A program made the position numbers and the translations under genes. Under the pieces are notes generated by a model. The model had not been told where the DNA came from. It was given only the letters and a program-made list of their open reading frames with translations, and searched no databases. Positions 8,042-64,000 of a DNA stretch of 64,000 nucleotides are shown one piece after another. Position 1 is the first letter of the stretch; each line of letters opens with the position of its first letter. This stretch comes from Escherichia coli (GTDB lineage: Bacteria > Pseudomonadota > Gammaproteobacteria > Enterobacterales > Enterobacteriaceae), in assembly GCF_003790525.1 (NCBI RefSeq), contig NZ_CP033635.1. One strand, given 5' to 3'.

Positions 8042-9019
8042 TTATGCCCGGTCAACGCTAAAGGCGATGACTTCAGCCAGTGTCTCCGCGCCCAGCGCCA
8101 ACATCACCAGACGATCAACGCCTAATGCCACGCCGGAACAGTCAGGCATACCGACTTTCAAGGCTTCAATCAGATTCTGGTCAATGGGGTGCTGCGGCAA
8201 ACCGCGCGCCGCGCGCTTACGGTTATCTTGTTCAAAGCGTTGTTGCTGCTCACGGGCATCCGTCAATTCATGGAAACCATTCGCCAGCTCAATACCTTTA
8301 TAATAAACCTCAAAGCGTTCAGCGACCCGATGATCTTCGGTACTGATTTGCGCCAGTGATGCCTGGCTGGCTGGAAAGTGGTACACAAAGGTCGGTTTTT
8401 CTTTGCCAATATTTGGCTCTACGCCAAAGGTAAACAGCAATTGTAGCAACGTGTCGCGGTCTTCTTCGGTATCTGCAACGTTGCTCAAATCCAGTTTCGC
8501 TGCCACTTCCCGCAGTTGCGTTTTGTCGGCAGAGAGCGGGTCAATTTCCAGATAACGCAAGAAAGCTTGTTGATAAGAAAGGCTTTCTGCTGCCGGGCAG
8601 TCCAGCACTTGTTGTAAGAGATCGTCCACCTCGTTCATCAACCGGTACATATCATAGTGCGGTCGATACCACTCAAGCATAGTGAACTCAGGGTTGTGAT
8701 AACGCCCCATCTCTTCATTACGGAAGCTGCGGCACAGCTGGAATACCGGCCCACAACCAGCAACCAGCAGGCGTTTCATATGGTATTCAGGGCTGGTCAT
8801 TAACCAGAGATTCATCCCCTGCGAATGCCCGGGGCCAACGAAACGTGTCTCAAACGGGACCAAATGAATATCGGTTACCGTCGCCTGGCTCATACAAGGC
8901 GTCTCCACCTCCAGCACTCCACGATCGGCAAAGAAACGACGGATCTCCGCCATAATCGCCGCGCGTTTTAATAAGTTAGGAATGGATGCGCTCGGCTGCC
9001 AGGATGCCGTTTCGCTCAT
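8042..9019 (-). CDS. epmA: EF-P lysine-34 lysyltransferase (LysRS class II paralogue; PoxA/GenX)
   Basis: ORF 8042-9064. The protein from [23 protein letters not shown]... is 325 aa and has the class II aaRS core ([20 protein letters not shown]). Confidence 0.9.
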
Positions 9020-9196
9020 AGTTAAATCTCCAGTTTTTGACAAGGGCACGAAGTCTACTCGCAACGCGACGGCGAGACAAATTTTACGCAGGAATCAAAC
9101 AACGGTGGGCAGTGACTAAAAAAAGCACGATCTGATGGTTTAGTAATTAAATTAATCATCTTCAGTGATAATTTAGCCCTCTTGCGCACTAAAAAA

Positions 9197-9238
9197 ATCG
9201 ATCTCGTCAAATTTCAGACTTATCCATCAGACTATACT
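9197..9238 (+). promoter_or_regulatory. frd promoter region: FNR-type half-site palindrome plus -10 TATACT
   Basis: aaaaATCGATctcgTCAAAttt resembles the TTGAT-N4-ATCAA FNR box I remember for frdA. TATACT lies about 25 nt downstream. The site is about 105-150 nt upstream of the frdA GTG. Confidence 0.45.
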
Positions 9239-9343
9239 GTTGTACCTATAAAGGAGCAGTGGAATAGCGTTCGCAGACCGTAACTTTCAGGCACTTACCC
9301 TGAAGTACGGGGCTGTGGGATAAAAACAATCTGGAGGAATGTC

Positions 9344-11144
9344 GTGCAAACCTTTCAAGCCGATCTTGCCATTGTAGGCGCCGGTGGCGCGGGATTACGT
9401 GCTGCAATTGCTGCCGCGCAGGCAAATCCAAATGCAAAAATCGCACTAATCTCAAAAGTATACCCGATGCGTAGCCATACCGTTGCTGCAGAAGGGGGCT
9501 CCGCCGCTGTCGCGCAGGATCATGACAGCTTCGAATATCACTTTCACGATACAGTAGCGGGTGGCGACTGGTTGTGTGAGCAGGATGTCGTGGATTATTT
9601 CGTCCACCACTGCCCAACCGAAATGACCCAACTGGAACTGTGGGGATGCCCATGGAGCCGTCGCCCGGATGGTAGCGTCAACGTACGTCGCTTCGGCGGC
9701 ATGAAAATCGAGCGTACCTGGTTCGCCGCCGATAAGACCGGCTTCCATATGCTGCACACGCTGTTCCAGACCTCTCTGCAATTCCCGCAGATCCAGCGTT
9801 TTGACGAACATTTCGTGCTGGATATTCTGGTTGATGATGGTCATGTTCGCGGCCTGGTAGCAATGAACATGATGGAAGGCACGCTGGTGCAGATCCGTGC
9901 TAACGCGGTCGTTATGGCTACCGGCGGTGCGGGTCGCGTTTATCGTTACAACACCAACGGCGGCATCGTTACCGGTGACGGTATGGGTATGGCGCTAAGC
10001 CACGGCGTTCCGCTGCGTGACATGGAATTCGTTCAGTATCACCCAACCGGTCTACCAGGTTCCGGTATCCTGATGACCGAAGGCTGCCGCGGTGAAGGTG
10101 GTATTCTGGTCAACAAAAATGGCTACCGTTATCTGCAAGATTACGGCATGGGCCCGGAAACTCCGCTGGGCGAGCCGAAAAACAAATATATGGAACTGGG
10201 TCCACGCGACAAAGTTTCTCAGGCCTTCTGGCACGAATGGCGTAAAGGCAACACCATCTCCACGCCACGTGGCGATGTGGTTTATCTCGACCTGCGTCAC
10301 CTCGGCGAGAAAAAACTGCATGAACGTCTGCCGTTCATCTGCGAACTGGCGAAAGCGTACGTTGGCGTCGATCCGGTTAAAGAACCGATTCCGGTACGTC
10401 CGACCGCACACTACACCATGGGTGGTATCGAAACCGATCAGAACTGTGAAACCCGCATTAAAGGTCTGTTCGCCGTGGGTGAATGTTCCTCTGTTGGTCT
10501 GCACGGTGCGAACCGTCTGGGCTCCAACTCGCTGGCGGAACTGGTGGTCTTCGGTCGTCTGGCCGGTGAGCAAGCTATGGAACGCGCATCTACTGCCGGT
10601 AATGGCAACGATGCAGCAATCAATGCTCAGGTTGCTGGCGTTGAACAGCGCCTGAAAGATCTGGTTAACCAGGATGGCGGCGAAAACTGGGCTAAGATCC
10701 GCGACGAAATGGGCATGGCCATGGAAGAAGGCTGCGGTATCTACCGTACGCCAGAACTGATGCAGAAAACCATCGACAAGCTGGCAGAATTGCAGGAACG
10801 CTTCAAGCGCGTGCGCATCACCGACACTTCCAGCGTGTTCAACACCGACCTGCTCTACACCATTGAACTGGGTCACGGTCTGAACGTTGCTGAATGTATG
10901 GCGCACTCCGCAATGGCACGTAAAGAGTCTCGCGGCGCGCACCAGCGTCTGGACGAAGGTTGCACCGAGCGTGACGACGTCAACTTCCTCAAACACACCC
11001 TCGCCTTCCGCGATGCTGATGGCACGACTCGCCTGGAGTACAGCGACGTGAAGATTACTACGCTGCCGCCAGCTAAACGCGTTTACGGTGGCGAAGCGGA
11101 TGCAGCCGATAAGGCGGAAGCAGCCAATAAGAAGGAGAAGGCGA

Positions 11145-11152
<8 letters not shown>
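9344..11152 (+). CDS. frdA: fumarate reductase flavoprotein subunit
   Basis: 602 aa with a GTG start. It has the FAD dinucleotide fold [13 protein letters not shown] and the histidyl-FAD region SHTVAAEGG. Confidence 0.97.
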
Positions 11153-12285
<1,133 letters not shown>

Positions 12286-53457: not shown

Positions 53458-56400
53458 TTATACCGTTGCTGCGTCGGTCACAACACCCAGCTCTTCGACT
53501 ATCTTTTGTAGGCGGGCGATCTGCTCTATATCAGGGAACACACCGGTAACGCCTTCGTTGTGGATATGCGTAAAAGGCTGTTCAAAGAGCTGCCGCATTT
53601 CAATGGTGCCGTAATCGCGAATGTGGTTTTTCAGCAATGACAGGAAGCGCAATTGCTGGCTGGTCAGGCTGTTATCAGCGGCGAACTGAGCAAAGCGCAC
53701 TTCCACCGCGTCGCTGTCCATCCCGATGATGGTACGCAATAGTTTATCCAGGCTGGCGGTCGCCTGCGGGTAGAACTCTTTCAGTGCCCGGATATCAACG
53801 TTAGGGTTCTGGATCAGCACCAGTTTAGCCAGTTCATCCAGCTCGCTTTGCGTCACAGGCTCGCCGTTGCGGATTTTCTTCAGCACCGGATTTTGCTGGA
53901 ACAGCGGCTCCAGCGCTCCCTGCACCTGCTGGCGATAGAGTTTGAAGTCAATCGAGCGGATGTTGGTTTTGCGGTTTTCCGTCTGAATCAGGTTCGCATC
54001 TTCGGTAATATCCACCTGTATCGAACCAAATTTCGGCGTCGCGTCTTTTTCCATCAGGTGCATGATGCCGCGCAGATGAATGCGGATATCTTCCAGCTCT
54101 TCCAGGCTGGCCTGCTTCCACCAGCCTAAATCACGAAGCTGATTGATCCGCGGTCCTTGCTGTTGGACCTGCGCCAAATGCGGCGGCAGGCGCTCCACTT
54201 TTTCGACGATGACCGGCCAGAGCACATCCAGCTCTTCCGGGTTGGTATAACGGGCAGTTTGCGCCGCCAGAATATCCATATCAAAGCGCATAGCGTCGCT
54301 TTGCCCGCGCACGTCCAGCCACTGCATCAGCGGGGCCAGGACAGATAGCAAATCCTGCTGTGTTTTCGGGGAAAGCTGGCGCAGCACTTTTTCATCGCTG
54401 TACTGCGCTTTTTGATGCCACTTTTCCTGGACGGCAATCGACTTTTCATCCAGTGCATTGATTTGCTCGCGTAGCTGGTGAGCAACTAAATCCACCGCCT
54501 GTTTGTCGAATTTACGTTGCGCAGCGGCCCCCAGCATAACCCACGCTTCGAAGCGTTTTTGTGCAAGCGATTTTGTCGCTGTGACTTCGGCCTCTTCGGT
54601 ATGCAGTTCGTGATACTCAAAATTGCCCCAGTGATCGAAAATGCGGAATTTCTGTTTATCCAGAGGTTTGCCGTTATCGTCGTAACCGTACAACCCCGGA
54701 CAGAGGCGCGTACCACGGCCAATCATCTGCCAGAACTTCACTTTTGATTTGACCGGTTTGGCAAAGACCAGATTCACAATTTCCGGGACATCAATACCGG
54801 TATCGAGCATGTCAACGGAGATAGCGATGGTCAGCTCTTTGTTGGTGCTTTCATCCAGCCCTTTAAAATCATCAATCAGTTGCTCGGCGCGGGGATCGTA
54901 ATTGTCGATGACCTGGCAGAAGCGCCCGGCAAACTGCGGGTACATATCGTCGAATAATTCATTCAACAGCAGCGCGTGTTTGTGGTTACGGGCGAAAATG
55001 ATGGTTTTACCTGGCAACTGGCCGTCCCGATCTTTCAGGCCATTTTCCATCAGGTTACGCAGGATATAGCGGTTGGTGTCTTTGTTGTAGATCGCCTCAT
55101 CCAGCGCCTTGCCATCAAACTCCAGCGTATTGGGATCTATGCCTTGTTCTTCCAGCTCGCGGATTTGTGCGTCGCTTAATTTCTCCCGTTTGATGCCTTC
55201 GCGCAGGAATTCTGTGGTGTGCGTGACAACCTCATAGGGAACCAGATTGTTATCGGCGATGGCATCTTCCAGGCTGTAGTTGGCGGTAGGAATACGTCCT
55301 TCACAACCAAACAGGCCGAAAGTGGTTTTACTCACCATGTCAATCGGCGTGGCCGTCAGGCCAATCTGGAGGGCATCAAAATACTTAAACAGATCGCCGT
55401 AAACGTTGTAGATAGAGCGATGGGATTCATCGGCGATGATCAAATCGAAATAACCAACATCGAAATGGTCCATGATTTTCATCATACCAGGATAGGTGGC
55501 GATGTAGATCCTAGCATTCTGCCTGTCTGCTTTTTTCGATTTCCCGACCACATACAGCGGCTCATTGGTGAATTGATTAAAGGCATTCGCCGCCTGTTTA
55601 CGTAGTTCCTTGCGGTCGCAAAGAAACAGGACGCGTTTTACCCAGCGGGCATCAATCATTAGTTTGCTTAGCGCTATTGCCACGCGGGTTTTGCCTGTAC
55701 CCGTAGCCTGAACAATTAGCGATTGCCGGTATTTGTTGGTAAACCGCTCGCTGACACGGGCAATGGTTTCAAGCTGGTACAAACGTCCGGCAACGGCCTT
55801 ACCTTCGTTATCTTTTACGTGCGGCACACTGTTCAGCGGAAGACGGGTTTCACGCTGTTGAATAAGATATTGCAGGCTTTCCTTGCTGTAGAAGCCAAAC
55901 ACCCGACGCGGGGGATAACCATGAGTTTTATGGTCATCCCACAGCCAGATATCATAGCCGTTGGTGTAGAAGATGATCGGACGCTGGTCGTATTCTTTTT
56001 CCAGCCAGTCTGCATACAGCCGGGCCTGAATTCGTCCTTGCTCGGCATTGACGCTGGTTTTTTTTGCTTCCACCACCGCCAGCGGTTTGTGTGCCTCATC
56101 CCACAAGACATAGTCCGCATAACCGTCTCCGGTCGCGGTAGGTTGTTCTTTAACGGGATGTTCCTGCGTAACCTGATCGGTATTTTTAAGGCCTTCGCCT
56201 ACATTCCAGTCAGCAGCAAGCAGGCGAGAGTCAATCAGGCGACGGCGGGTTTCCGCTTCATCAATAGAGAGAATATCGGCAACATGCTGGTTACGCGCTC
56301 TGGCTTCATTCAGGCGTTGAGTGAGGTGTTCGGCCTTTTCCTGTTCTTGCTGTAGTGCGCGTTGCAGCGCCAGTTCGCGCTCACGGCTTTCATCCTGAGC

Positions 56401-56874
56401 CCTGATTGCATCTTCCAGACGTTTTTCATCTGCACGACCTGAAGATTGTGTTAATGGAGGGAGTGTAAATTTGGGGCAGTCATCAACATTACCGTGGGCG
56501 TAGCGAACATACAGCCAAATTCCCAACAAATACGCTTCTTTGAGCAGCCAGTAAGTATCTTTAGCTTTGATACGTCCGCCGTGCGCGGCACGGTTGCCAT
56601 GGATACGCAGCGCATCCATTTTCATGATGATGGCTTCCGGCATCATGCTGGTAAAGACATCAGCATTCATTAAATCGTAAAGATTAGCCTTAATACCTTC
56701 CGGCAACCGCTCCTGACGATACAACCAGCGCACCATCAATTCGGTGTAGTTGCGCAGCTTGACCAGACAACTTTCCGGATCGGAGTGAACATAGCGTTCC
56801 GCCATACACGCGAGTTCAGCCAGTTCCGGCCACTGGCTGCGCAACATTTCAAAATTGAGAGACTGCTCCATCAA
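53458..56874 (-). CDS. hsdR: type I restriction endonuclease/translocase subunit, long form
   Basis: 1138 aa. It has a PD-(D/E)xK-like nuclease core (GYADYVLWDEAHKPLAVVEAKK), SF2 helicase motif I VQATGTGKT and motif II IIADESHRS. An additional roughly 150-aa N-terminal helical domain and a long C-terminal extension are also present. Confidence 0.9.
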   Translation of the reverse strand: MMEQSLNFEMLRSQWPELAELACMAERYVHSDPESCLVKLRNYTELMVRWLYRQERLPEGIKANLYDLMNADVFTSMMPEAIIMKMDALRIHGNRAAHGGRIKAKDTYWLLKEAYLLGIWLYVRYAHGNVDDCPKFTLPPLTQSSGRADEKRLEDAIRAQDESRERELALQRALQQEQEKAEHLTQRLNEARARNQHVADILSIDEAETRRRLIDSRLLAADWNVGEGLKNTDQVTQEHPVKEQPTATGDGYADYVLWDEAHKPLAVVEAKKTSVNAEQGRIQARLYADWLEKEYDQRPIIFYTNGYDIWLWDDHKTHGYPPRRVFGFYSKESLQYLIQQRETRLPLNSVPHVKDNEGKAVAGRLYQLETIARVSERFTNKYRQSLIVQATGTGKTRVAIALSKLMIDARWVKRVLFLCDRKELRKQAANAFNQFTNEPLYVVGKSKKADRQNARIYIATYPGMMKIMDHFDVGYFDLIIADESHRSIYNVYGDLFKYFDALQIGLTATPIDMVSKTTFGLFGCEGRIPTANYSLEDAIADNNLVPYEVVTHTTEFLREGIKREKLSDAQIRELEEQGIDPNTLEFDGKALDEAIYNKDTNRYILRNLMENGLKDRDGQLPGKTIIFARNHKHALLLNELFDDMYPQFAGRFCQVIDNYDPRAEQLIDDFKGLDESTNKELTIAISVDMLDTGIDVPEIVNLVFAKPVKSKVKFWQMIGRGTRLCPGLYGYDDNGKPLDKQKFRIFDHWGNFEYHELHTEEAEVTATKSLAQKRFEAWVMLGAAAQRKFDKQAVDLVAHQLREQINALDEKSIAVQEKWHQKAQYSDEKVLRQLSPKTQQDLLSVLAPLMQWLDVRGQSDAMRFDMDILAAQTARYTNPEELDVLWPVIVEKVERLPPHLAQVQQQGPRINQLRDLGWWKQASLEELEDIRIHLRGIMHLMEKDATPKFGSIQVDITEDANLIQTENRKTNIRSIDFKLYRQQVQGALEPLFQQNPVLKKIRNGEPVTQSELDELAKLVLIQNPNVDIRALKEFYPQATASLDKLLRTIIGMDSDAVEVRFAQFAADNSLTSQQLRFLSLLKNHIRDYGTIEMRQLFEQPFTHIHNEGVTGVFPDIEQIARLQKIVEELGVVTDAATV

Positions 56875-57450: not shown

Positions 57451-58025
57451 ATGACCAATTCAGCACACCAGCGACTGGATATGGCGGGAAATGGTGGCCC
57501 GGGGGTTACAGGCAGTGAAACCATCGTCAGGGATGCTGTTGCCAAATGGCGTAAAGGCTGGAACCCACCAGTTACTACTGCCGCCAGACTTCCTTCAGTG
57601 TCCCGGGTAAGCCGCTGGTTGATGCCCTGGATAATAATCAGGGGTGAAGAAAATTATGCTTCCCGATTTATTAGTCTGATGTGTGAAAAAGAACCGGCGC
57701 TGAAAATAGCGCAGCAACTAGTACTTGAGTTCTACCGTATTCTGAAAACCCCAAATAAATCAAATCTAAGCAGTTGGTTCACTCGAGTCCACGAAAACGG
57801 TTCAGCAGAACTTCGGCGCGTGGCTGCGGGGATGGAAGCTGATGCTGCGGCTATATGTGAGGCAACCAGCAGCCGCTGGAGTAACGGTGTTGTCGAAGGT
57901 CATGTAAATCGCCTGAAGATGCTGAAACATCTGATGTATGGTCGAGCCGGATTTGAACTACTTAGGCAGAGGGTAATGAGTCCACTGGCATGAAAATCTC
58001 CACCTAGGTTGCGGAAGAGCCACTT
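57451..58025 (+). pseudogene. ISL3-family transposase C-terminal fragment plus terminal inverted repeat
   Basis: The 180-aa ORF ends ...RWSNGVVEGHVNRLKMLKHLMYGRAGFELLRQRVM, the conserved ISL3 transposase tail. ggttgcggaagagcc (reverse complement GGCTCTTCCGCAACC) follows at about 58007-58021 and looks like an ISL3-type terminal repeat. The N-terminal two-thirds of the transposase are absent. Confidence 0.6.
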
Positions 58026-58292: not shown

Positions 58293-58601
58293 TTATCGAT
58301 CTATTACGCGATCATAATATTCGATGATTTGCAGTGCAACAGCAGCAATTTGTACTGCTTCCTCCCTACTGGTACCGGCTGCTTTACCACCAAAACGATC
58401 ATGGAGGACAGCCTGATGAAATTCTCCCACCTCTTCTCCGAGAATCGCTCCCCAGATAAAAGGATCTTGATTACGGTCTGCCCCCCATTTGGCATCCTGC
58501 CGTTGCATTTCCGCTAGCACGTCAGACAGGGCTTTAGTGTCTTGATGTTTACCTTTCATGTTTCCCTTACGAATCCGTGATTTTAAGTCCATCATTAACA
58601 T
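58293..58601 (-). CDS. small MazG-like (all-alpha NTP pyrophosphohydrolase) protein
   Basis: 102-aa ORF, or 88 aa from the internal MKGKHQD. It has the EExxE-type metal site in WGAILGEEVGEFHQAV and a second acidic helix REEAVQIAAVALQIIEYYD, typical of MazG/dimeric-dUTPase-like folds. Confidence 0.6.
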   Translation of the reverse strand: MLMMDLKSRIRKGNMKGKHQDTKALSDVLAEMQRQDAKWGADRNQDPFIWGAILGEEVGEFHQAVLHDRFGGKAAGTSREEAVQIAAVALQIIEYYDRVIDR

Positions 58602-58702
58602 TTAATATGTGCAGAGTCCATTAATTCGCTACATCTCATTTTGTGAATGAGCGTTGAGTTTGCTATAAACGTAGCAACCAAGAAAAATAAAAGTGGATAA
58701 TT

Positions 58703-59029
58703 TTGTTCATTACCTTTCAAAGCAAGAAGTTAAGGACTATTTGCGAGAGTATGCATGAGGCAAATGAGATCTTTGGTGACAAAGTGGCATCAAGACTACG
58801 CTCGCGACTTTCCGATCTTTCCGTGACAGACAACATATTACTGTTGCCCGTAGGTTCGCCGGAGGTCTGCTTTGAGGATGGGGAAGAGTGTATTACAATT
58901 ACCATTCTCGGTGATGTAAAAATGGGATTTGTCTGTGGGAATACAGTTCAGCCCAAAAATCAAGATAATACAATTAACTGGTCCCGAGTTAGCCGGATAC
59001 GGTTAGTGTTCATAGGTGACGTGAAATGA
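58703..59029 (+). CDS. HigB-like / plasmid-maintenance killer-type toxin (RelE superfamily)
   Basis: 108 aa with a TTG start. The N-terminus (M)FITFQSKKLRTICE resembles the F-x-x-KKL-x-x-C opening of HigB-type killer proteins. The stop overlaps the downstream gene by 4 nt. Confidence 0.5.
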   Translation: MFITFQSKKLRTICESMHEANEIFGDKVASRLRSRLSDLSVTDNILLLPVGSPEVCFEDGEECITITILGDVKMGFVCGNTVQPKNQDNTINWSRVSRIRLVFIGDVK

Positions 59030-60108
59030 TAGTTACGCAGGACTTCCAGCCTGACTGGGTATCTCCACCCGGTGATACAATTATAGATCTAATGGATGAA
59101 CATGGGCTTTCTGGTGAAGAACTGAGTAAGAGGATTGGATTGTCTCTTATCCGGGGTCAGCAACTTCTTGAAGGAAAAATCCGACTCAATGAGTCTCTGG
59201 CTTGTAAGCTTGAGGAGTTATTCAACGTATCGACAGACTTCTGGATCAAGCGCGAAGTCGCTTATCGCCAGCAAATTGGATACCTCGAGAAAGTGAATAA
59301 TGATTGGCTCGAATCATTGCCTGTACGTGATATGATGGAGTTTGGTTGGATCCCCAAAACTACAACTCGGGAAAGTAAATTCCAGCACTGCCTATCGTTT
59401 TTCGGAATAAATTCCGTCAATGATTTTTTTTATAAAATTCAGTCAGATGCTCCTTTGGTCGCTTTTCGTAAATCTCTTAATCTGGCAACCGAGCCTATGG
59501 CCGATTTGGTGTGGCTGACTAGGGCTGCACAACTTACCTCAAACCAAAACTGTGCTGTATGGGATAAAGAGGGGCTGATAGCATTGTTGCCAGAACTGCG
59601 CAAAGCTACAAATGAACCCGACATGAGGATTTTTATCCCTTACATTCGCGACCTTCTCGCCACTGCTGGAGTTTCTCTCGTTGTGTTGCCAACGCCAAAG
59701 GGATGTCGGGCAAGTGGTGCTACCTGCTTTTTTACACCAGATCGCGCAACCCTAGTCATGAGTTTCCGTTATCTGACCGATGACCATTTTTGGTTTACGC
59801 TGTTTCATGAGATTGGGCATCTCATCTTGCATGAAGCTGTCCGAGTTCGCGTAGAAGGTAAAGATAGTCTTTCGTCGGAAGAGGAAAAGGAAGCAGATAA
59901 ATTTGCCGTTGATGTTCTTATCCCAGAAGAATACCGGCAGCAACTTAGTCGCTATGGTGTCCGGCATTGGAAAGAGATCATCCGGTTAGCTAGGAAAATG
60001 GGGGTATCCAAAGGGATCGTACTGGGATATTTGCAGCATGAAGGTAATATACCTTTTTCTCACCTTAATCGGTTTAAAGTGAGATTCCGTAAAGAAGATA
60101 TCGTCTGA
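59026..60108 (+). CDS. XRE-type HTH fused to an ImmA/IrrE (M78, COG2856) zinc metallopeptidase
   Basis: 360 aa with an N-terminal HTH region (GDTIIDLMDEHGLSGEELSKRIGLSLIRGQQLLEGK). The C-terminal part has the HEXXH motif in WFTLFHEIGHLILHE. Confidence 0.7.
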   Translation: MIVTQDFQPDWVSPPGDTIIDLMDEHGLSGEELSKRIGLSLIRGQQLLEGKIRLNESLACKLEELFNVSTDFWIKREVAYRQQIGYLEKVNNDWLESLPVRDMMEFGWIPKTTTRESKFQHCLSFFGINSVNDFFYKIQSDAPLVAFRKSLNLATEPMADLVWLTRAAQLTSNQNCAVWDKEGLIALLPELRKATNEPDMRIFIPYIRDLLATAGVSLVVLPTPKGCRASGATCFFTPDRATLVMSFRYLTDDHFWFTLFHEIGHLILHEAVRVRVEGKDSLSSEEEKEADKFAVDVLIPEEYRQQLSRYGVRHWKEIIRLARKMGVSKGIVLGYLQHEGNIPFSHLNRFKVRFRKEDIV

Positions 60109-60110
60109 TA

Positions 60111-61055
60111 TCAGCCGCCGAAATAGACATAACGGTCAGGTGATTTCTGCCAGTTGCACAACGCATCTTCAATAACCTGCATTCTCAAGTAGGGTGCAGG
60201 AATAATTGCCGCAAGGTCAGCTAGTTTTTCATTCAATACGTCTATTGTGTCACCAGCAGTCCGGCTATTGCTGAAAAGTAGCCGGCTTCCTTGAAGGGGC
60301 CCGGTTGCTCCATTCAGAAAAGCATGACCCGGCTCTACATCCAGAAGTCCCGTTTTCTTGAGCATAGTTAGGTAATCAAATTTTGCGGTTCGTCCAAATG
60401 AGATCACGGCATTTAGCCCTGAATACAATAGTTCGAATAAAGATTCTGGTGAAGATGAAAAGCTCTTGGCCTCTGCAAACCTAGCCTCATGACTGTGTGT
60501 AGCACCAATGAATCCGATGTAAGAGCGAAAAACCGCAGGTATTGAACGACGAGAGTGATATTTCTTCGTTTCATATTTCCGATGGTTACCATATTGTCTT
60601 AGGCTACTGTTAGCTGTCAACTCATCAGAGACGCTGGCGAACCATTGTTCAAAAGCAGCAAAGTCATCAGTTATCGTATCCCATGTCCACGTTTGTGTAC
60701 CGAGTCCACTGTATATATCTCGACACAAAATCCAGCCGGTTTTGTTACTCTTGCCGAAATGTGTGGCAAGGAAAACCAGCCAGCAGGCTTCATCGTAATT
60801 GTTGTCACGAAGATAAAGGCAGGCAGCGCGGAGAGGATCAAAAACATCAGAATTCGGCTCTTTTCGTAACGGAGTCATATAATCGGTCCGTAATGCAAGA
60901 GTTTCCACATAGCGTATACGACGTATACTGTCGATAATCTGACAGGCTAAAACATCAAAGCAGGCAGGAGAACTTAGGCCATTTAGGTTGTGTTCATTGC
61001 GGCTAAAATTTTGCAAATTACTAACCAGCTGACTGATTTGATTATGTCTTTTCAT
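60111..61055 (-). CDS. hypothetical 314-aa protein translationally coupled to the TS-like gene (possible aGPT-pyrophosphorylase-like / HhH-glycosylase-fold protein; unverified)
   Basis: The ATG overlaps the TS-like stop (ATGA). No classical motif is certain. The segments GNHRKYETKKYHSRR, FGRTAKFDYLTMLKKTGLL and NGATGPLQG remind me of the family annotated as alpha-glutamyl/putrescinyl thymine pyrophosphorylase clade 3. This rests on memory only. Confidence 0.35.
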   Translation of the reverse strand: MKRHNQISQLVSNLQNFSRNEHNLNGLSSPACFDVLACQIIDSIRRIRYVETLALRTDYMTPLRKEPNSDVFDPLRAACLYLRDNNYDEACWLVFLATHFGKSNKTGWILCRDIYSGLGTQTWTWDTITDDFAAFEQWFASVSDELTANSSLRQYGNHRKYETKKYHSRRSIPAVFRSYIGFIGATHSHEARFAEAKSFSSSPESLFELLYSGLNAVISFGRTAKFDYLTMLKKTGLLDVEPGHAFLNGATGPLQGSRLLFSNSRTAGDTIDVLNEKLADLAAIIPAPYLRMQVIEDALCNWQKSPDRYVYFGG

Positions 61056-62032
61056 TGTAGTCTTCCTTCAAAAATAAACCGATATTCCTGATTTTTCATT
61101 GCAGCCAACTCTTGGAAGGCTAGTCCTTTGTGGTTGGGTGTATGTGAACGTAACAAAAAGTGGATTTTTAATATACGCAATAAATCCTTCCAGTAGTCAT
61201 TCAAGGAAGTAGTGTCAATATCAAATTCCTTATTCTCTCGAAGAGCTTTTTCTGCCTCAAGCAGGGGTAAGATATCATCTAAGGAATGCATTTCAGGCAT
61301 CGATCCCATGACTGGTAGGGTGCTCATGAACCCCTCTTTCTGAAGAGCCTTCACTTTTTCTAAATCATTTTTATAGAGATGTAGGCTGGATACAAAGTGA
61401 TGATAGTGACCCAATTCGCATCCTATCAAGCGGGCAACTAATTCCTGTAGCATCGTGAACGCAAATACATCATGAGGCAGCCCCATAAAGGCATCGTTAG
61501 AACGCATACAAACAAATAGATGCAGCTCTTCACATCTGACAATAAACTGCATAGATATTGTACAAGGAATATCTACGTATTCTCGCTGTTCAGTTTTTGA
61601 GGGCACCAAGTCTGAGGCATCGAAAAGCTGTATTACTGCACGTCTGGTAGGTTTTTTCTCCTGCAAAAGGTTGATAACATTTTTTAGCTGATTATATAAA
61701 CCACGCATATTAAACAACCGTGGCCCGTAACCACCATGTATTTTCCCATCTGACTCAGCGGATTCAGCGTAACGTGGTATGAAGTGTTTTATAAACTCAA
61801 GATCGTTCTGAGCTGAGAGATACCACAGAAATTCACCTAAGCAACTAATTAGTTTTCCTCGGGATTCTGTTCTACTTATTCTTCGGCGGGGGTCGGTAAG
61901 GACAAGATAGGCACCAAGAATCTCTAGAGTTGATCCTTTTGTAGGATCGTTACTGAGTCCATCCGCTAGGATAGCTTGATGAACATCGTTTATCAGATCG
62001 TCAACACACTCAGCCGTTACCAAAAGAGTCAT
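61052..62032 (-). CDS. thymidylate synthase superfamily protein (ThyA / dNMP hydroxymethylase-like)
   Basis: 326 aa. It aligns by eye to the E. coli ThyA core. [14 protein letters not shown] matches [26 protein letters not shown] matches LAPCHAFFQFYV, retaining the catalytic Cys. [27 protein letters not shown] matches [35 protein letters not shown] matches GDTHLYSN. The N- and C-termini are divergent. Confidence 0.75.
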   Translation of the reverse strand: [326 protein letters not shown]

Positions 62033-62199
62033 TTTCTACCTTTTCCTGTATGGTAGTAACTAATCATTACCACCTGTATGGCATATAGTCAATATAGTAT
62101 CAATATCAACATGGTTCACAGGGTAAGTAAGACTTGATCTTACCCAGCAATAGTGGACACGCGGCTAAGTGAGTAAACTCTCAGTCAGAGGTGACTCAC

Positions 62200-62498
62200 A
62201 TGACAAAAACAGTATCAACCAGTAAAAACCCCGTAAACAGCATTCGCCTGAATTTCTCAGTGAAGCCCTGAAACTTGCTGAACGCATCGGTGTTGCTGCC
62301 GCAGCCCGTGAACTCAGCCTGTATGAATCACAGCTCTATGCGTGGCGCAGCAAACTGCAGCAACAAATGAGTTCGTCAGAGCGTGAAAGTGAACTGGCCG
62401 CTGAAAATGCCTGCCTGAAGCGGCAACTGGCGGAGCAGGCAGAGGAACTGGCTATCCTCCAAAAGGCCGCGACATACTTTGCGAATCGTCTGAAATGA
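62200..62498 (+). pseudogene. insE: IS3 orfA (insE) inactivated by a 1-nt deletion in an A-run
   Basis: It reads ATG ACA AAA ACA GTA TCA ACC AGT AAA AAC CCC GTA AAC ... TGA, with a stop after 23 codons. K-12 IS3 has AGT AAA AAA CCC CGT AAA CAG (one more A). The ORF track lists no orfA-sized ORF of 60 aa or more here, and the element is 1 nt shorter than 1258 bp. Confidence 0.75.
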
Positions 62499-63361
62499 AG
62501 TATGTCTTTATTGAAAAACATCAGGCTGAGTTCAGCATCAAAGCAATGTGCCGCGTGCTCCGGGTGGCCCGCAGCGGCTGGTATACGTGGTGTCAGCGGC
62601 GGACAAGGATAAGCACGCGTCAGCAGTTCCGCCAACACTGCGACAGCGTTGTCCTCGCGGCTTTTACCCGGTCAAAACAGCGTTACGGTGCCCCACGCCT
62701 GACGGATGAACTGCGTGCTCAGGGTTACCCCTTTAACGTAAAAACCGTGGCGGCAAGCCTGCGCCGTCAGGGACTGAGGGCAAAGGCCTCCCGGAAGTTC
62801 AGCCCGGTCAGCTACCGCGCACACGGCCTGCCTGTGTCAGAAAATCTGTTGGAGCAGGATTTTTACGCCAGTGGCCCGAACCAGAAGTGGGCAGGAGACA
62901 TCACGTACTTACGTACAGATGAAGGCTGGCTGTATCTGGCAGTGGTCATTGACCTGTGGTCACGTGCCGTTATTGGCTGGTCAATGTCGCCACGCATGAC
63001 GGCGCAACTGGCCTGCGATGCCCTGCAGATGGCGCTGTGGCGGCGTAAGAGGCCCCGGAACGTTATCGTTCACACGGACCGTGGAGGCCAGTACTGTTCA
63101 GCAGATTATCAGGCGCAACTGAAGCGGCATAATCTGCGTGGAAGTATGAGCGCAAAAGGTTGCTGCTACGATAATGCCTGCGTGGAAAGCTTCTTTCATT
63201 CGCTGAAAGTGGAATGTATCCATGGAGAACACTTTATCAGCCGGGAAATAATGCGGGCAACGGTGTTTAATTATATCGAATGTGATTACAATCGGTGGCG
63301 GCGGCACAGTTGGTGTGGCGGCCTCAGTCCGGAACAATTTGAAAACAAGAACCTCGCTTAG
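62495..63361 (+). CDS. insF: IS3 transposase orfB (DDE/rve domain)
   Basis: 288 aa beginning [32 protein letters not shown]. It contains the motifs [16 protein letters not shown] and [11 protein letters not shown]. Confidence 0.93.
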
Positions 63362-63511
63362 GCCTGTGTCCATATTACGTGGGTAGGATCACATAACCTG
63401 AAATGGCACTAATGGCCAGAGCTTACTAATACATAATCCCTACAGGATGTAGCCACCAGTTTTGTTCATCCGGTATTCTGATTTGGTAACATGCTCCAGA
63501 AAGGAAGAAAT

Positions 63512-64000
63512 ATGTACTGCAATGAATTAAAAGAATTTGCGCAAGAGCAGGAACAAAAACTTATCAGTGCGCTTGCTGATACCAGAGAGCACCCGTCCCC
63601 CGATGGTGAAACAAGAAGCCGGGATAATTATCAACGGGATTACGCGCGTATTCTGTATTCATCATCATTTCGCAGGCTGCAGGGAAAGATGCAACTTTTT
63701 GAAATTGATCCTGAAAAATTCAACAGAAACAGATTAACGCACAGTCTTGAGGTTGCTCAGATCGCCCGAAGTATCGCGTCAGACCTCAAACTGATTAACC
63801 CGGTGGTGGTTGAACTGGCAGCGCTGGCGCATGACATCGGAAATCCTCCTTTCGGTCATTCCGGTGAAAAACTGCTTAATGAACTGTCTGAAGAAATCGG
63901 CGGCTATGAAGGTAATGCACAGGCGCTACGTATCCTGAGAAAACTGGAGAAGAAATTTTCATACTGCAACGGATTAAATCTGACTCACCGTAGTTTACTT
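63512..64000 (+). CDS. Dgt-family dGTP/dNTP triphosphohydrolase (HD domain), 5' 163 codons; continues past the right edge
   Basis: This gene is not in the ORF track because it has no stop in the window. Manual translation from the ATG at 63512 (RBS AGGAAG) gives MYCNELKEFAQEQEQKLISALADTREHPSPDGETRSRDNYQRDYARILYSSSFRRLQGKMQLF...NRLTHSLEVAQIARSIA...AALAHDIGNPPFGHSGE...YEGNAQALRIL. These are the canonical dGTPase motifs (RD-x-RI-x-S-x-FRRL, RLTHSLEV, HD-GNPPFGH, EGNAQ). Confidence 0.85.
   Translation, partial: MYCNELKEFAQEQEQKLISALADTREHPSPDGETRSRDNYQRDYARILYSSSFRRLQGKMQLFEIDPEKFNRNRLTHSLEVAQIARSIASDLKLINPVVVELAALAHDIGNPPFGHSGEKLLNELSEEIGGYEGNAQALRILRKLEKKFSYCNGLNLTHRSLL

Follow-up and report, generated by a model that had tools for sequence, protein, structure and literature searches.

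A horizontally mobile cassette with a dCMP C5-hydroxymethylase-type enzyme, a clade-3 aGPT-Pplase and a PD-lambda-2-like gene pair in an Escherichia coli defense island

Positions 58293-62095 of a 64,000-nt stretch of the Escherichia coli chromosome (NZ_CP033635.1; the whole stretch is termed the window in the following) very probably constitute one self-contained, horizontally mobile cassette. Its four-gene core is arranged in two convergent operons, the first encoding a 108-aa protein and a protein with helix-turn-helix (HTH) and M78 peptidase domains (HTH-M78), the second a thymidylate synthase-like (TS-like) enzyme and a protein of aGPT-Pplase clade 3 (aGPT-Pplase3; ADDT family); a MazG-like gene is added as accessory in Enterobacterales. 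With the same high confidence, the dGTPase gene located beyond an IS3 copy is regarded as an independent, known anti-phage neighbor that shares the island and the IS3 junction with the cassette but not a pathway. The TS-like enzyme is characterized by the residue signature of deoxycytidine monophosphate (dCMP) C5-hydroxymethylases, and the HTH-M78 protein is homologous to component B of the phage defense system PD-lambda-2. We give an even chance to the overall reading that the cassette converts cytosine nucleotides under the control of a switch and, thereby, starves or poisons phage replication.

Gene content and distribution of the cassette

A profile built from 24 diverse aGPT-Pplase3 proteins retrieved 79 loci on contigs of one genome per species (Proteobacteria, Acidobacteriota, Planctomycetota, Verrucomicrobiota, Bacteroidota, Actinobacteria, Chloroflexi, Saccharibacteria); every open reading frame (ORF) of these loci was searched with the window proteins, and the dGTPase was looked for within 8-10 kb. 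Together with 26 loci on viral contigs of IMG/VR, 105 loci were available. The HTH-M78 gene was adjacent and convergent to the aGPT-Pplase3 gene in 77 of the 79 genome loci and 25 of the 26 IMG/VR loci, the TS-like gene was located upstream of aGPT-Pplase3 in 73/79, and a homologue of the 108-aa ORF directly preceded the HTH-M78 gene in 71/79 genome and 20/26 IMG/VR loci; core genes were missing mostly from genome loci at contig ends. Indeed, when the 5,157 ORFs of the genome loci were clustered all against all, these four genes formed the sole near-universal clusters. The same gene set, again without dGTPase, was present in the 26 IMG/VR loci and on ten plasmids; the clade-3 family as a whole has approximately 3,900 detectable members.

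The two operons meet end to end. In the window, 2 bp separate the aGPT-Pplase3 stop codon from that of HTH-M78 (60108-60111), which is also the median among the loci; the distance is 20 bp or less in 65 of 75 loci, and the convergent stops overlap by 4-20 bp in 27 of them. In consequence, there is no space for a terminator between the operons and the two transcripts must overlap at their 3' ends, so that antisense or collision-type regulation may take place. In either operon, consecutive genes share an ATGA overlap (108-aa ORF/HTH-M78 and TS-like/aGPT-Pplase3).

According to blastn comparisons, a block from 58304 to 62095, extending from the MazG-like gene through the TS-like promoter, is common to Raoultella, Citrobacter and Enterobacter (79-81% identity) as well as Pectobacterium (65%), with different flanks in each genus; the MazG-like gene, lying inside this homology block, is therefore part of the mobile unit in enterobacteria. 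Within E. coli, the segment 58100-62134 is 100% identical in many genomes and present in 259 of 5,426 complete ones. P4-type integrases are located beside the cassette in seven loci, and the cassette is also found on plasmids, islands and some prophage-like contigs. A tblastn search with aGPT-Pplase3 against 50,697 phage genome records gave no match, and the IMG/VR loci are just 26 in 2.9 million contigs.

The first-pass annotation of this DNA had placed the MazG-like, TS-like and partner genes, the 5' part of the dGTPase gene and the IS3 copy at positions that the profile matches and inverted-repeat ends bear out, and had left out the HTH-M78 gene and the 108-aa ORF (58703-60108), both core members of the system. 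Its proposal that MazG-like gene, TS-like gene plus partner and dGTPase form one cooperative pathway or sub-island split by IS3 is consistent with the fact that all three loci act on deoxynucleotides, and the accompanying statement that TS-like operon and dGTPase gene would be divergent neighbors about 220 bp apart without IS3 holds: the flanks of 102 bp (left) and 120 bp (right) add up to 222 bp, 14 bp being additional when compared with the IS-free sequence, and in the single IS3-free genome (EC2) among 368 E. coli genomes containing either flank the two genes are divergent and 206 bp apart. The EC2 arrangement may be ancestral or the product of a secondary excision; the flanks are collinear either way. 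Beyond this lineage, however, the dGTPase was found within 8-10 kb of the cassette in none of the 79 genome loci and none of the 26 viral-contig loci, and the enterobacterial homology stops at 62095, before IS3 and dGTPase. In E. coli itself, the adjacency represents one near-identical island lineage, and each unit also occurs alone (about 109 genomes with the dGTPase only, about 60 with the cassette only). The single-pathway explanation is thus largely refuted, and we consider it extremely improbable. What remains of the proposed grouping is the block 58304-62095 with MazG-like, TS-like and aGPT-Pplase3 genes, in which a Nudix hydrolase replaces the MazG-like enzyme elsewhere, whereas the dGTPase lies outside; likewise, the suggested comparison of related genomes for co-variation revealed core cassette genes linked across phyla but a dGTPase without conserved linkage.

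Further proteins accompany the core in part of the loci. A conserved protein of about 269 aa is encoded between the TS-like and aGPT-Pplase3 genes in 30/79 loci (e.g. L020:9174-9974); it contains the motifs GLNPSNREF, NPYDxWF, CHLDLIPYAT and GFNHNIQSSFGVT and had no match in Pfam, PADLOC or the PDB. A relationship to UDG/MUG-like glycosylases, suspected from its GLNPS-type motifs, was rejected (hhalign against E. coli MUG, probability 0.26%). A DUF4031 protein (Pfam, 4e-25) is present in 9/79 loci, mostly of beta- and gammaproteobacteria (e.g. L048:5172-5516), its gene being positioned within the cassette or at its edge. The cassette appears to be inactivated in some genomes: in Enterobacter hormaechei B17-3 (8044-10001) aGPT-Pplase3 is interrupted by an inserted segment of about 1.96 kb with a 5-bp duplication, and in Citrobacter murliniae (10948-12031) two ORFs stand in place of an intact HTH-M78 gene. 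In Vibrio cholerae, the four-gene cassette has MSHA pilus/GGDEF-EAL genes on one side and a toxin-antitoxin pair of HTH-HipA type on the other; in one V. cholerae variant, the cassette is followed by an SMC-like ATPase, a HATPase_c gene and a TCAD9 gene.

Catalytic residues and relatives of the encoded proteins

The diagnostic positions of the TS superfamily (PMC5175136, PMC13326640) were applied to the TS-like protein of the window and 67 homologues. The nucleophile is present as catalytic Cys-157 (67/67); Asp-188 at the position of ThyA Asn177 (Asp in 67/67) is indicative of cytosine, not uracil, as the base; Ser-178 at the position of MilA Ala176 (Ser167; Ser in 67/67) and Arg-130 at that of MilA Lys133 (Arg126; Arg in 66/67) point to deoxyribose as the sugar; and Asp-154 at the position of ThyA Leu143, which serves water exclusion in ThyA, is acidic in 61/67 (Asp/Glu), as in the hydroxymethylase type. 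Arg-177, Asp-180 and His-218 (each 67/67) and Tyr-220 (66/67) are likewise kept. The enzyme is, as judged from these residues, in possession of the full dCMP C5-hydroxymethylase signature and not of the thymidylate synthase, i.e. deoxyuridine monophosphate (dUMP), signature. In agreement with this assignment, it stays under every ThyA cut-off of NCBIfam (best model 81 bits versus a cut-off of 327), and the Pfam superfamily model alone was passed; its identity to phage TS homologues does not exceed about 33%.

Its best relative in the PDB is the CMP hydroxymethylase MilA (1.6e-41; ThyA approximately 1e-11). MilA being the closest solved structure, the cassette could be envisaged to produce a free pyrimidine antimetabolite in the manner of MilA/MilB (mildiomycin) or BcmA/BcmB (bacimethrin), with aGPT-Pplase3 acting glycosidase-like on the modified nucleotide; aGPT-Pplases have indeed been described with a DNA-glycosylase-like fold (PMC8989533). 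Such a function is nevertheless very improbable in our estimation: where MilA has Ala176 and Lys133, the sequences have the deoxyribose-type residues Ser (67/67) and Arg (66/67), conserved genes for additional biosynthetic steps, export or resistance are missing among the 79 loci, and the genomic context is defensive and mobile.

The TS-like/aGPT-Pplase3 operon is preceded by a predicted promoter of which both hexamers are kept in seven enterobacterial sequences; the shared homology stops just upstream of it, at 62095. Since IS3 lies beyond the -35 element, 43 bp upstream, the operon is probably still expressed.

The partner protein matched Pfam PF18746 (aGPT-Pplase3) with 302 bits versus a gathering threshold of 25 (4.8e-90; profile positions 4-278 of 279) and PF18724 (ADDT) with 199 bits (9e-59). 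Its invariant motif E296-D297-x-x-C300-N-W-Q-K is represented as EDxxCNW in 75 of 78 homologues, and the cysteine with the adjacent Glu/Asp recalls the essential Cys/Glu pair of the clade-2 amino-acid:DNA transferases (PMC8989533). A relationship of aGPT-Pplase3 to the "DNA base hypermodification protein" of the DS-4 system was rejected (hhalign probability 0.08%).

The clade-2 enzymes belong to the thymidine hypermodification pathways of phages M6, ViI, PhiW-14 and SP10, in which a dUMP hydroxymethylase, a 5-hydroxymethyl-deoxyuridine (5-hmdU) DNA kinase as well as an aGPT-Pplase of clade 2, i.e. an amino-acid:DNA transferase, are combined. The cassette resembles them in joining a TS-like hydroxymethylase to an ADDT-family protein with a Cys/Glu motif; it differs in the clade of the latter (3, not 2), in the base (cytosine, not uracil), in the missing kinase, PLP (pyridoxal phosphate) or radical-SAM partner and in the lack of any phage-genome match. 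The first-pass annotation had drawn a comparison with phage hypermodification pathways; given the cytosine signature, the missing 5-hmdU DNA kinase and the absence of the transferase family from the 50,697 phage genomes, the cassette is not a phage pathway for thymidine hypermodification. A related alternative is the hypermodification of self DNA, by which host or mobile-element DNA would receive a modified cytosine serving as epigenetic or anti-restriction mark and the HTH-M78 pair would be the regulator. ADDT-family enzymes are known exclusively as DNA-base transferases (PMC8989533), traces of modified dC appeared in the DNA of E. coli expressing a phage TS homologue alone (PMC13326640), and the cassette resides on islands, plasmids and some prophage-like contigs, all of which would suit such a mark. 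The absence of the aGPT-Pplase3 family from phage genomes, however, a control module of toxin-antitoxin type and the ORF clusters of the 79 loci, which include neither a conserved kinase for deoxynucleoside monophosphates (dNMP) or DNA nor a modification-dependent or -sensitive nuclease partner, render self-modification unlikely.

The MazG-like gene matched no Pfam or NCBIfam model and no PDB sequence. In an alignment of 33 sequences, however, the metal-binding motifs EEVGE (EExxE) and ExxD are near-invariant, and the AlphaFold model (pLDDT, i.e. predicted local distance difference test, 86) retrieved by Foldseek as top PDB matches YpjD (2gta), AF_0060 (2p06), MazG of Bacillus and Thermotoga (5ie9, 2yxh) and HisE-type enzymes; the probabilities reached 0.99 with weak E-values (0.1-3), as expected with a small helical domain. 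Its modeled helical-bundle fold and the motifs place the protein in the all-alpha nucleoside triphosphate (NTP) pyrophosphohydrolase family. The gene is present in 7/79 genome loci, all of Enterobacterales, and 4/26 IMG/VR loci. A Nudix hydrolase gene abuts the cassette, beside the 108-aa ORF or the TS-like gene, in five unrelated loci (two Chthoniobacterales, one Longimicrobium, one actinobacterium, one Larkinella), and a sixth such locus is in IMG/VR. Among NCBIfam models, these proteins come closest to that of the NudG-type pyrimidine (d)NTP diphosphatase (1.6e-33, below the cut-off). By rough estimate, and not from a computed statistic, less than one such Nudix neighbor would be expected by chance. 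Since two unrelated folds occupy the same place, a pathway function of a (d)NTP pyrophosphatase is suggested.

The HTH-M78 protein matched the PADLOC model PD-Lambda-2_B (8.7e-30; residues 15-341 versus profile positions 60-378 of 402). It is composed of an N-terminal Xre/HigA-like HTH (TIGR02607 HigA, 7.6e-5) and a C-terminal ImmA/IrrE (M78) metallopeptidase with the motif HEIGH, HExxH being present in 75 of 76 homologues. By analogy with PD-lambda-2, it is proposed to be the control or switch component. PD-lambda-2 is a validated abortive-infection system consisting of HigB-like A, Xre-peptidase B and P4-antitoxin-like C, in which B alone is toxic, A neutralizes it and C is required for defense (PMC9519451). 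Gene order and overlap are the same in the cassette, where a small upstream ORF is followed by Xre/HigA-HTH plus M78 peptidase; component C is missing and the convergent TS-like/aGPT-Pplase3 operon is found in its place.

The 108-aa ORF has no annotation in the E. coli RefSeq records of the locus and is conserved across phyla; its TTG start is kept in Enterobacterales and its stop overlaps the HTH-M78 start (ATGA). It fits PD-lambda-2 A in position and size and has no match to the PADLOC A model. The protein is possibly HigB-like, as suggested by weak similarities: the top PDB match of its profile is a killer protein (6f8s_B; E 0.19), hhalign against Proteus vulgaris HigB gave E 0.004 with a probability of 8.5%, and the Pfam model HigB-like_toxin was matched by 1 of 61 family members. 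An AlphaFold model based on ten homologues was unusable (pLDDT 48.6). Some genomes label the homologues "killer suppression protein HigA". Upstream of this orf108 operon, the palindrome TTGCTA-N6-TAGCAA overlaps the operon's putative -10 element; kept in six enterobacterial orthologous regions, it is a candidate operator.

A control module of this kind also raises the question of an addiction (toxin-antitoxin) module that would stabilize the island without any role in phage defense, the nucleotide enzymes or HTH-M78 being the toxin. The toxicity of PD-lambda-2 B alone and its neutralization by A (PMC9519451), the tight overlap within gene pairs and the decay of the cassette (insertion in aGPT-Pplase3 of E. 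hormaechei, split HTH-M78 in Citrobacter) are compatible with this explanation. Two catalytically intact-looking enzymes that are kept across phyla are, on the other hand, more than an addiction module needs; furthermore, PD-lambda-2 itself is an anti-phage system, the flanks of the cassette are enriched in defense genes and a machine-learning prediction assigns it to defense. A mere addiction module is, accordingly, quite unlikely.

Proposed function in phage defense

The 124 large ORFs that flank the 79 loci most closely include type I restriction-modification (R-M) subunits, Shedu SduA, MADS, PDC-S07, AbiEii, Kiwa KwaB, a DRT and RmrA. A TS-like protein identical to that of the window (WP_000174035) is listed as "predicted novel defense gene" with log-odds of 7.63 by DefensePredictor (Table S10; Science 2026, PMC13092281). 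DS-4, a system from the same work that was validated in E. coli, consists of TS, dNMP kinase, 5-hmdU DNA kinase, TIR and NMAD (PMC13092281); like the cassette, it is an anti-phage system with a bacterial TS-like gene, and its TS-like protein is a homologue of the cassette's (29% identity, 1e-28). In contrast to the cassette enzyme, the DS-4 TS keeps the uracil-type Asn at ThyA position 177, and no other component is common to both.

In the proposed scheme, the TS-like enzyme would convert dCMP with methylene-tetrahydrofolate to a C5-modified dCMP, most likely 5-hydroxymethyl-dCMP. The translationally coupled aGPT-Pplase3 would act via its Cys/Glu pair on the hydroxymethyl-pyrimidine, either as nucleotide or as base in DNA, and the MazG-like enzyme (elsewhere the NudG/MutT-like Nudix protein) would hydrolyze dCTP to supply dCMP or destroy the modified triphosphate. 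The 108-aa protein and the HTH-M78 peptidase, in their PD-lambda-2 A/B architecture, would hold the pathway silent until infection, the predicted trigger; as net effect, phage DNA synthesis would run short of dCTP or suffer poisoning by a modified cytosine nucleotide. The exact chemistry of this scheme is doubtful, its steps after 5-hydroxymethyl-dCMP being deduced from sequence features.

In phage T4, the dCTPase gp56 supplies dCMP to the dCMP hydroxymethylase gp42. The TS-like enzyme shares with the latter the catalytic Cys, Asp in place of Asn177 and an acidic residue in place of Leu143 of ThyA, and the Ser and Arg that mark deoxyribose (PMC5175136, PMC13326640), and, as with gp56/gp42, an NTP pyrophosphatase is encoded alongside the hydroxymethylase. 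Compared with gp56/gp42 and the TS-superfamily hydroxymethylases MilA and BcmA, the cassette is bacterially encoded instead of phage-encoded, lacks dNMP kinase and glucosyltransferase, pairs the TS-like enzyme with aGPT-Pplase3 and a protease switch, and could yield a 5-hydroxy product. We tentatively suggest that bacteria of many phyla might possess a host-side version of the T-even logic, leading from dCTP via dCMP to 5-hydroxymethyl-dCMP, in combination with a clade-3 base transferase and a PD-lambda-2-like protease switch; upon infection, a hypermodified cytosine nucleotide poison or a new modified cytosine in replicating DNA might then be formed.

The defenses based on depletion of deoxynucleoside triphosphates (dNTP), reportedly described by Tal and colleagues in 2022, include an anti-phage dGTPase and a dCTP deaminase. 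The neighboring gene that starts at 63512 belongs to this group, and the cassette may likewise remove dCTP; it differs from these defenses in the multi-enzyme conversion, the protease/HTH switch and the lack of a conserved dGTPase linkage.

Several observations weigh against cytosine-nucleotide conversion as a defense. The clade-2 transferases require the 5-hmdU DNA kinase to make the leaving group (PMC8989533), but no kinase is conserved among the ORF clusters of the 79 loci; the activation of the hydroxymethyl group by aGPT-Pplase3 is therefore unexplained. The product of the TS-like enzyme is uncertain, because the flavin-dependent 5-hydroxy-dCMP synthases of RB69-like phages carry the same two key substitutions (PMC13326640). 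A pyrophosphatase, MazG-like or Nudix, was present in just 17 of the 105 loci. No PADLOC model matched the TS-like, aGPT-Pplase3, MazG-like or 108-aa proteins, and aGPT-Pplase systems were predicted, not validated, by DefensePredictor (PMC13092281). With respect to the control arm, it is not established that the 108-aa protein is HigB-like, and an operator shared by both promoters, which would have connected the two operons, is unsupported as the palindromes differ.

Genomic setting and implications

The setting is a defense island, as the first-pass annotation had suspected: the window combines the cassette and the dGTPase with a type I R-M system into which an AriA/NsnB-like ATPase is embedded (Table 1). 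The genes hsdM and hsdS and the ATPase with its partner are situated upstream of the hsdR region. Directly downstream of hsdS, the low-GC stretch 48094-50612 (31-34%) encodes this 540-aa ABC-type ATPase, which matched PADLOC PDC-M55A (1e-40), NsnB (3e-37) and AriA (5e-22), and a 298-aa partner with no family match; the two probably represent a defense pair lying inside the type I R-M locus.

Table 1. Features in the window (positions 1-64,000) around the cassette.
Feature	Position	Strand	Basis or remark
hsdR	53458-56874	(-)	
ISL3 transposase fragment	57451-57993		
MazG-like all-alpha NTP pyrophosphohydrolase (predicted)	58293-58559 (RefSeq start; 88 aa); longest ORF to 58601	(-)	AlphaFold/Foldseek, motifs
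Palindrome TTGCTA-N6-TAGCAA	58660-58677		divergent intergenic region; sequence reading; candidate operator
108-aa ORF	58703-59029	(+)	homologues directly upstream of HTH-M78 gene
HTH-M78 protein, 360 aa	59026-60108	(+)	Pfam HTH_3 and Peptidase_M78; PADLOC PD-Lambda-2_B
aGPT-Pplase clade 3/ADDT-family protein, 314 aa	60111-61055	(-)	Pfam PF18746, PF18724
TS-like (TS-superfamily) enzyme, 326 aa	61052-62032	(-)	Pfam Thymidylat_synt 5e-25; dCMP C5-hydroxymethylase-type active site
Predicted sigma-70-like promoter TTGACT-18-AATGAT of the TS-like/aGPT-Pplase3 operon	62063-62092	(-)	consensus scan
IS3 copy, 1257 bp	62135-63391	(+)	inverted-repeat ends
dGTPase, 5' part (163 of 410 codons)	63512-64000	(+)	TIGR01353, NF041026, PADLOC

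The dGTPase fragment (170 aa) exceeded the cut-off of TIGR01353 (187 versus 152 bits; 6.3e-55) and matched NF041026 (1.6e-49); the full-length protein from an identical E. coli locus matched the PADLOC dGTPase model with 2e-109. RefSeq marks the dGTPase beside the cassette as frameshifted in E. coli EC2 and FORC 064, which could be due to a pseudogene or an assembly error.

The IS3 copy of the window, which lies between cassette and dGTPase and does not belong to the system, possesses both inverted repeats and an intact orfB; a 1-bp deletion (one A) in an A-run of orfA causes a frameshift, and RefSeq marks the element as "frameshifted". No clean 3-bp target duplication was found at its ends (flanks ACT versus CAT), and its junctions differ between lineages by 3-14 bp. 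In FORC 064, an intact IS3 of 1258 bp is present; its left junction lies 11 bp nearer to the TS-like gene than that of the window copy. The same IS3 is a rearrangement breakpoint elsewhere: ABU 83972 retains the dGTPase only, APEC 102026 the cassette only.

The analysis delimits a minimal cassette unit (58.2-62.1 kb) with defined catalytic residues, and the genes that hundreds of genomes carry under the labels "thymidylate synthase" and "hypothetical protein" are, according to their signatures, not genes of deoxythymidine monophosphate (dTMP) synthesis. If the cassette is defensive, a cytosine-directed multi-enzyme route would join the nucleotide-pool defenses (dGTPase, dCTP deaminase, viperins), a first function would be assigned to the clade-3 aGPT-Pplases, and the PD-lambda-2-type pair of small protein and Xre-peptidase would have to be viewed as a portable switch that is wired to different effectors. 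Should the host-side T-even logic prove true, the cassette would represent a new kind of immune effector and a new ADDT-family activity that acts on cytosine without a kinase.

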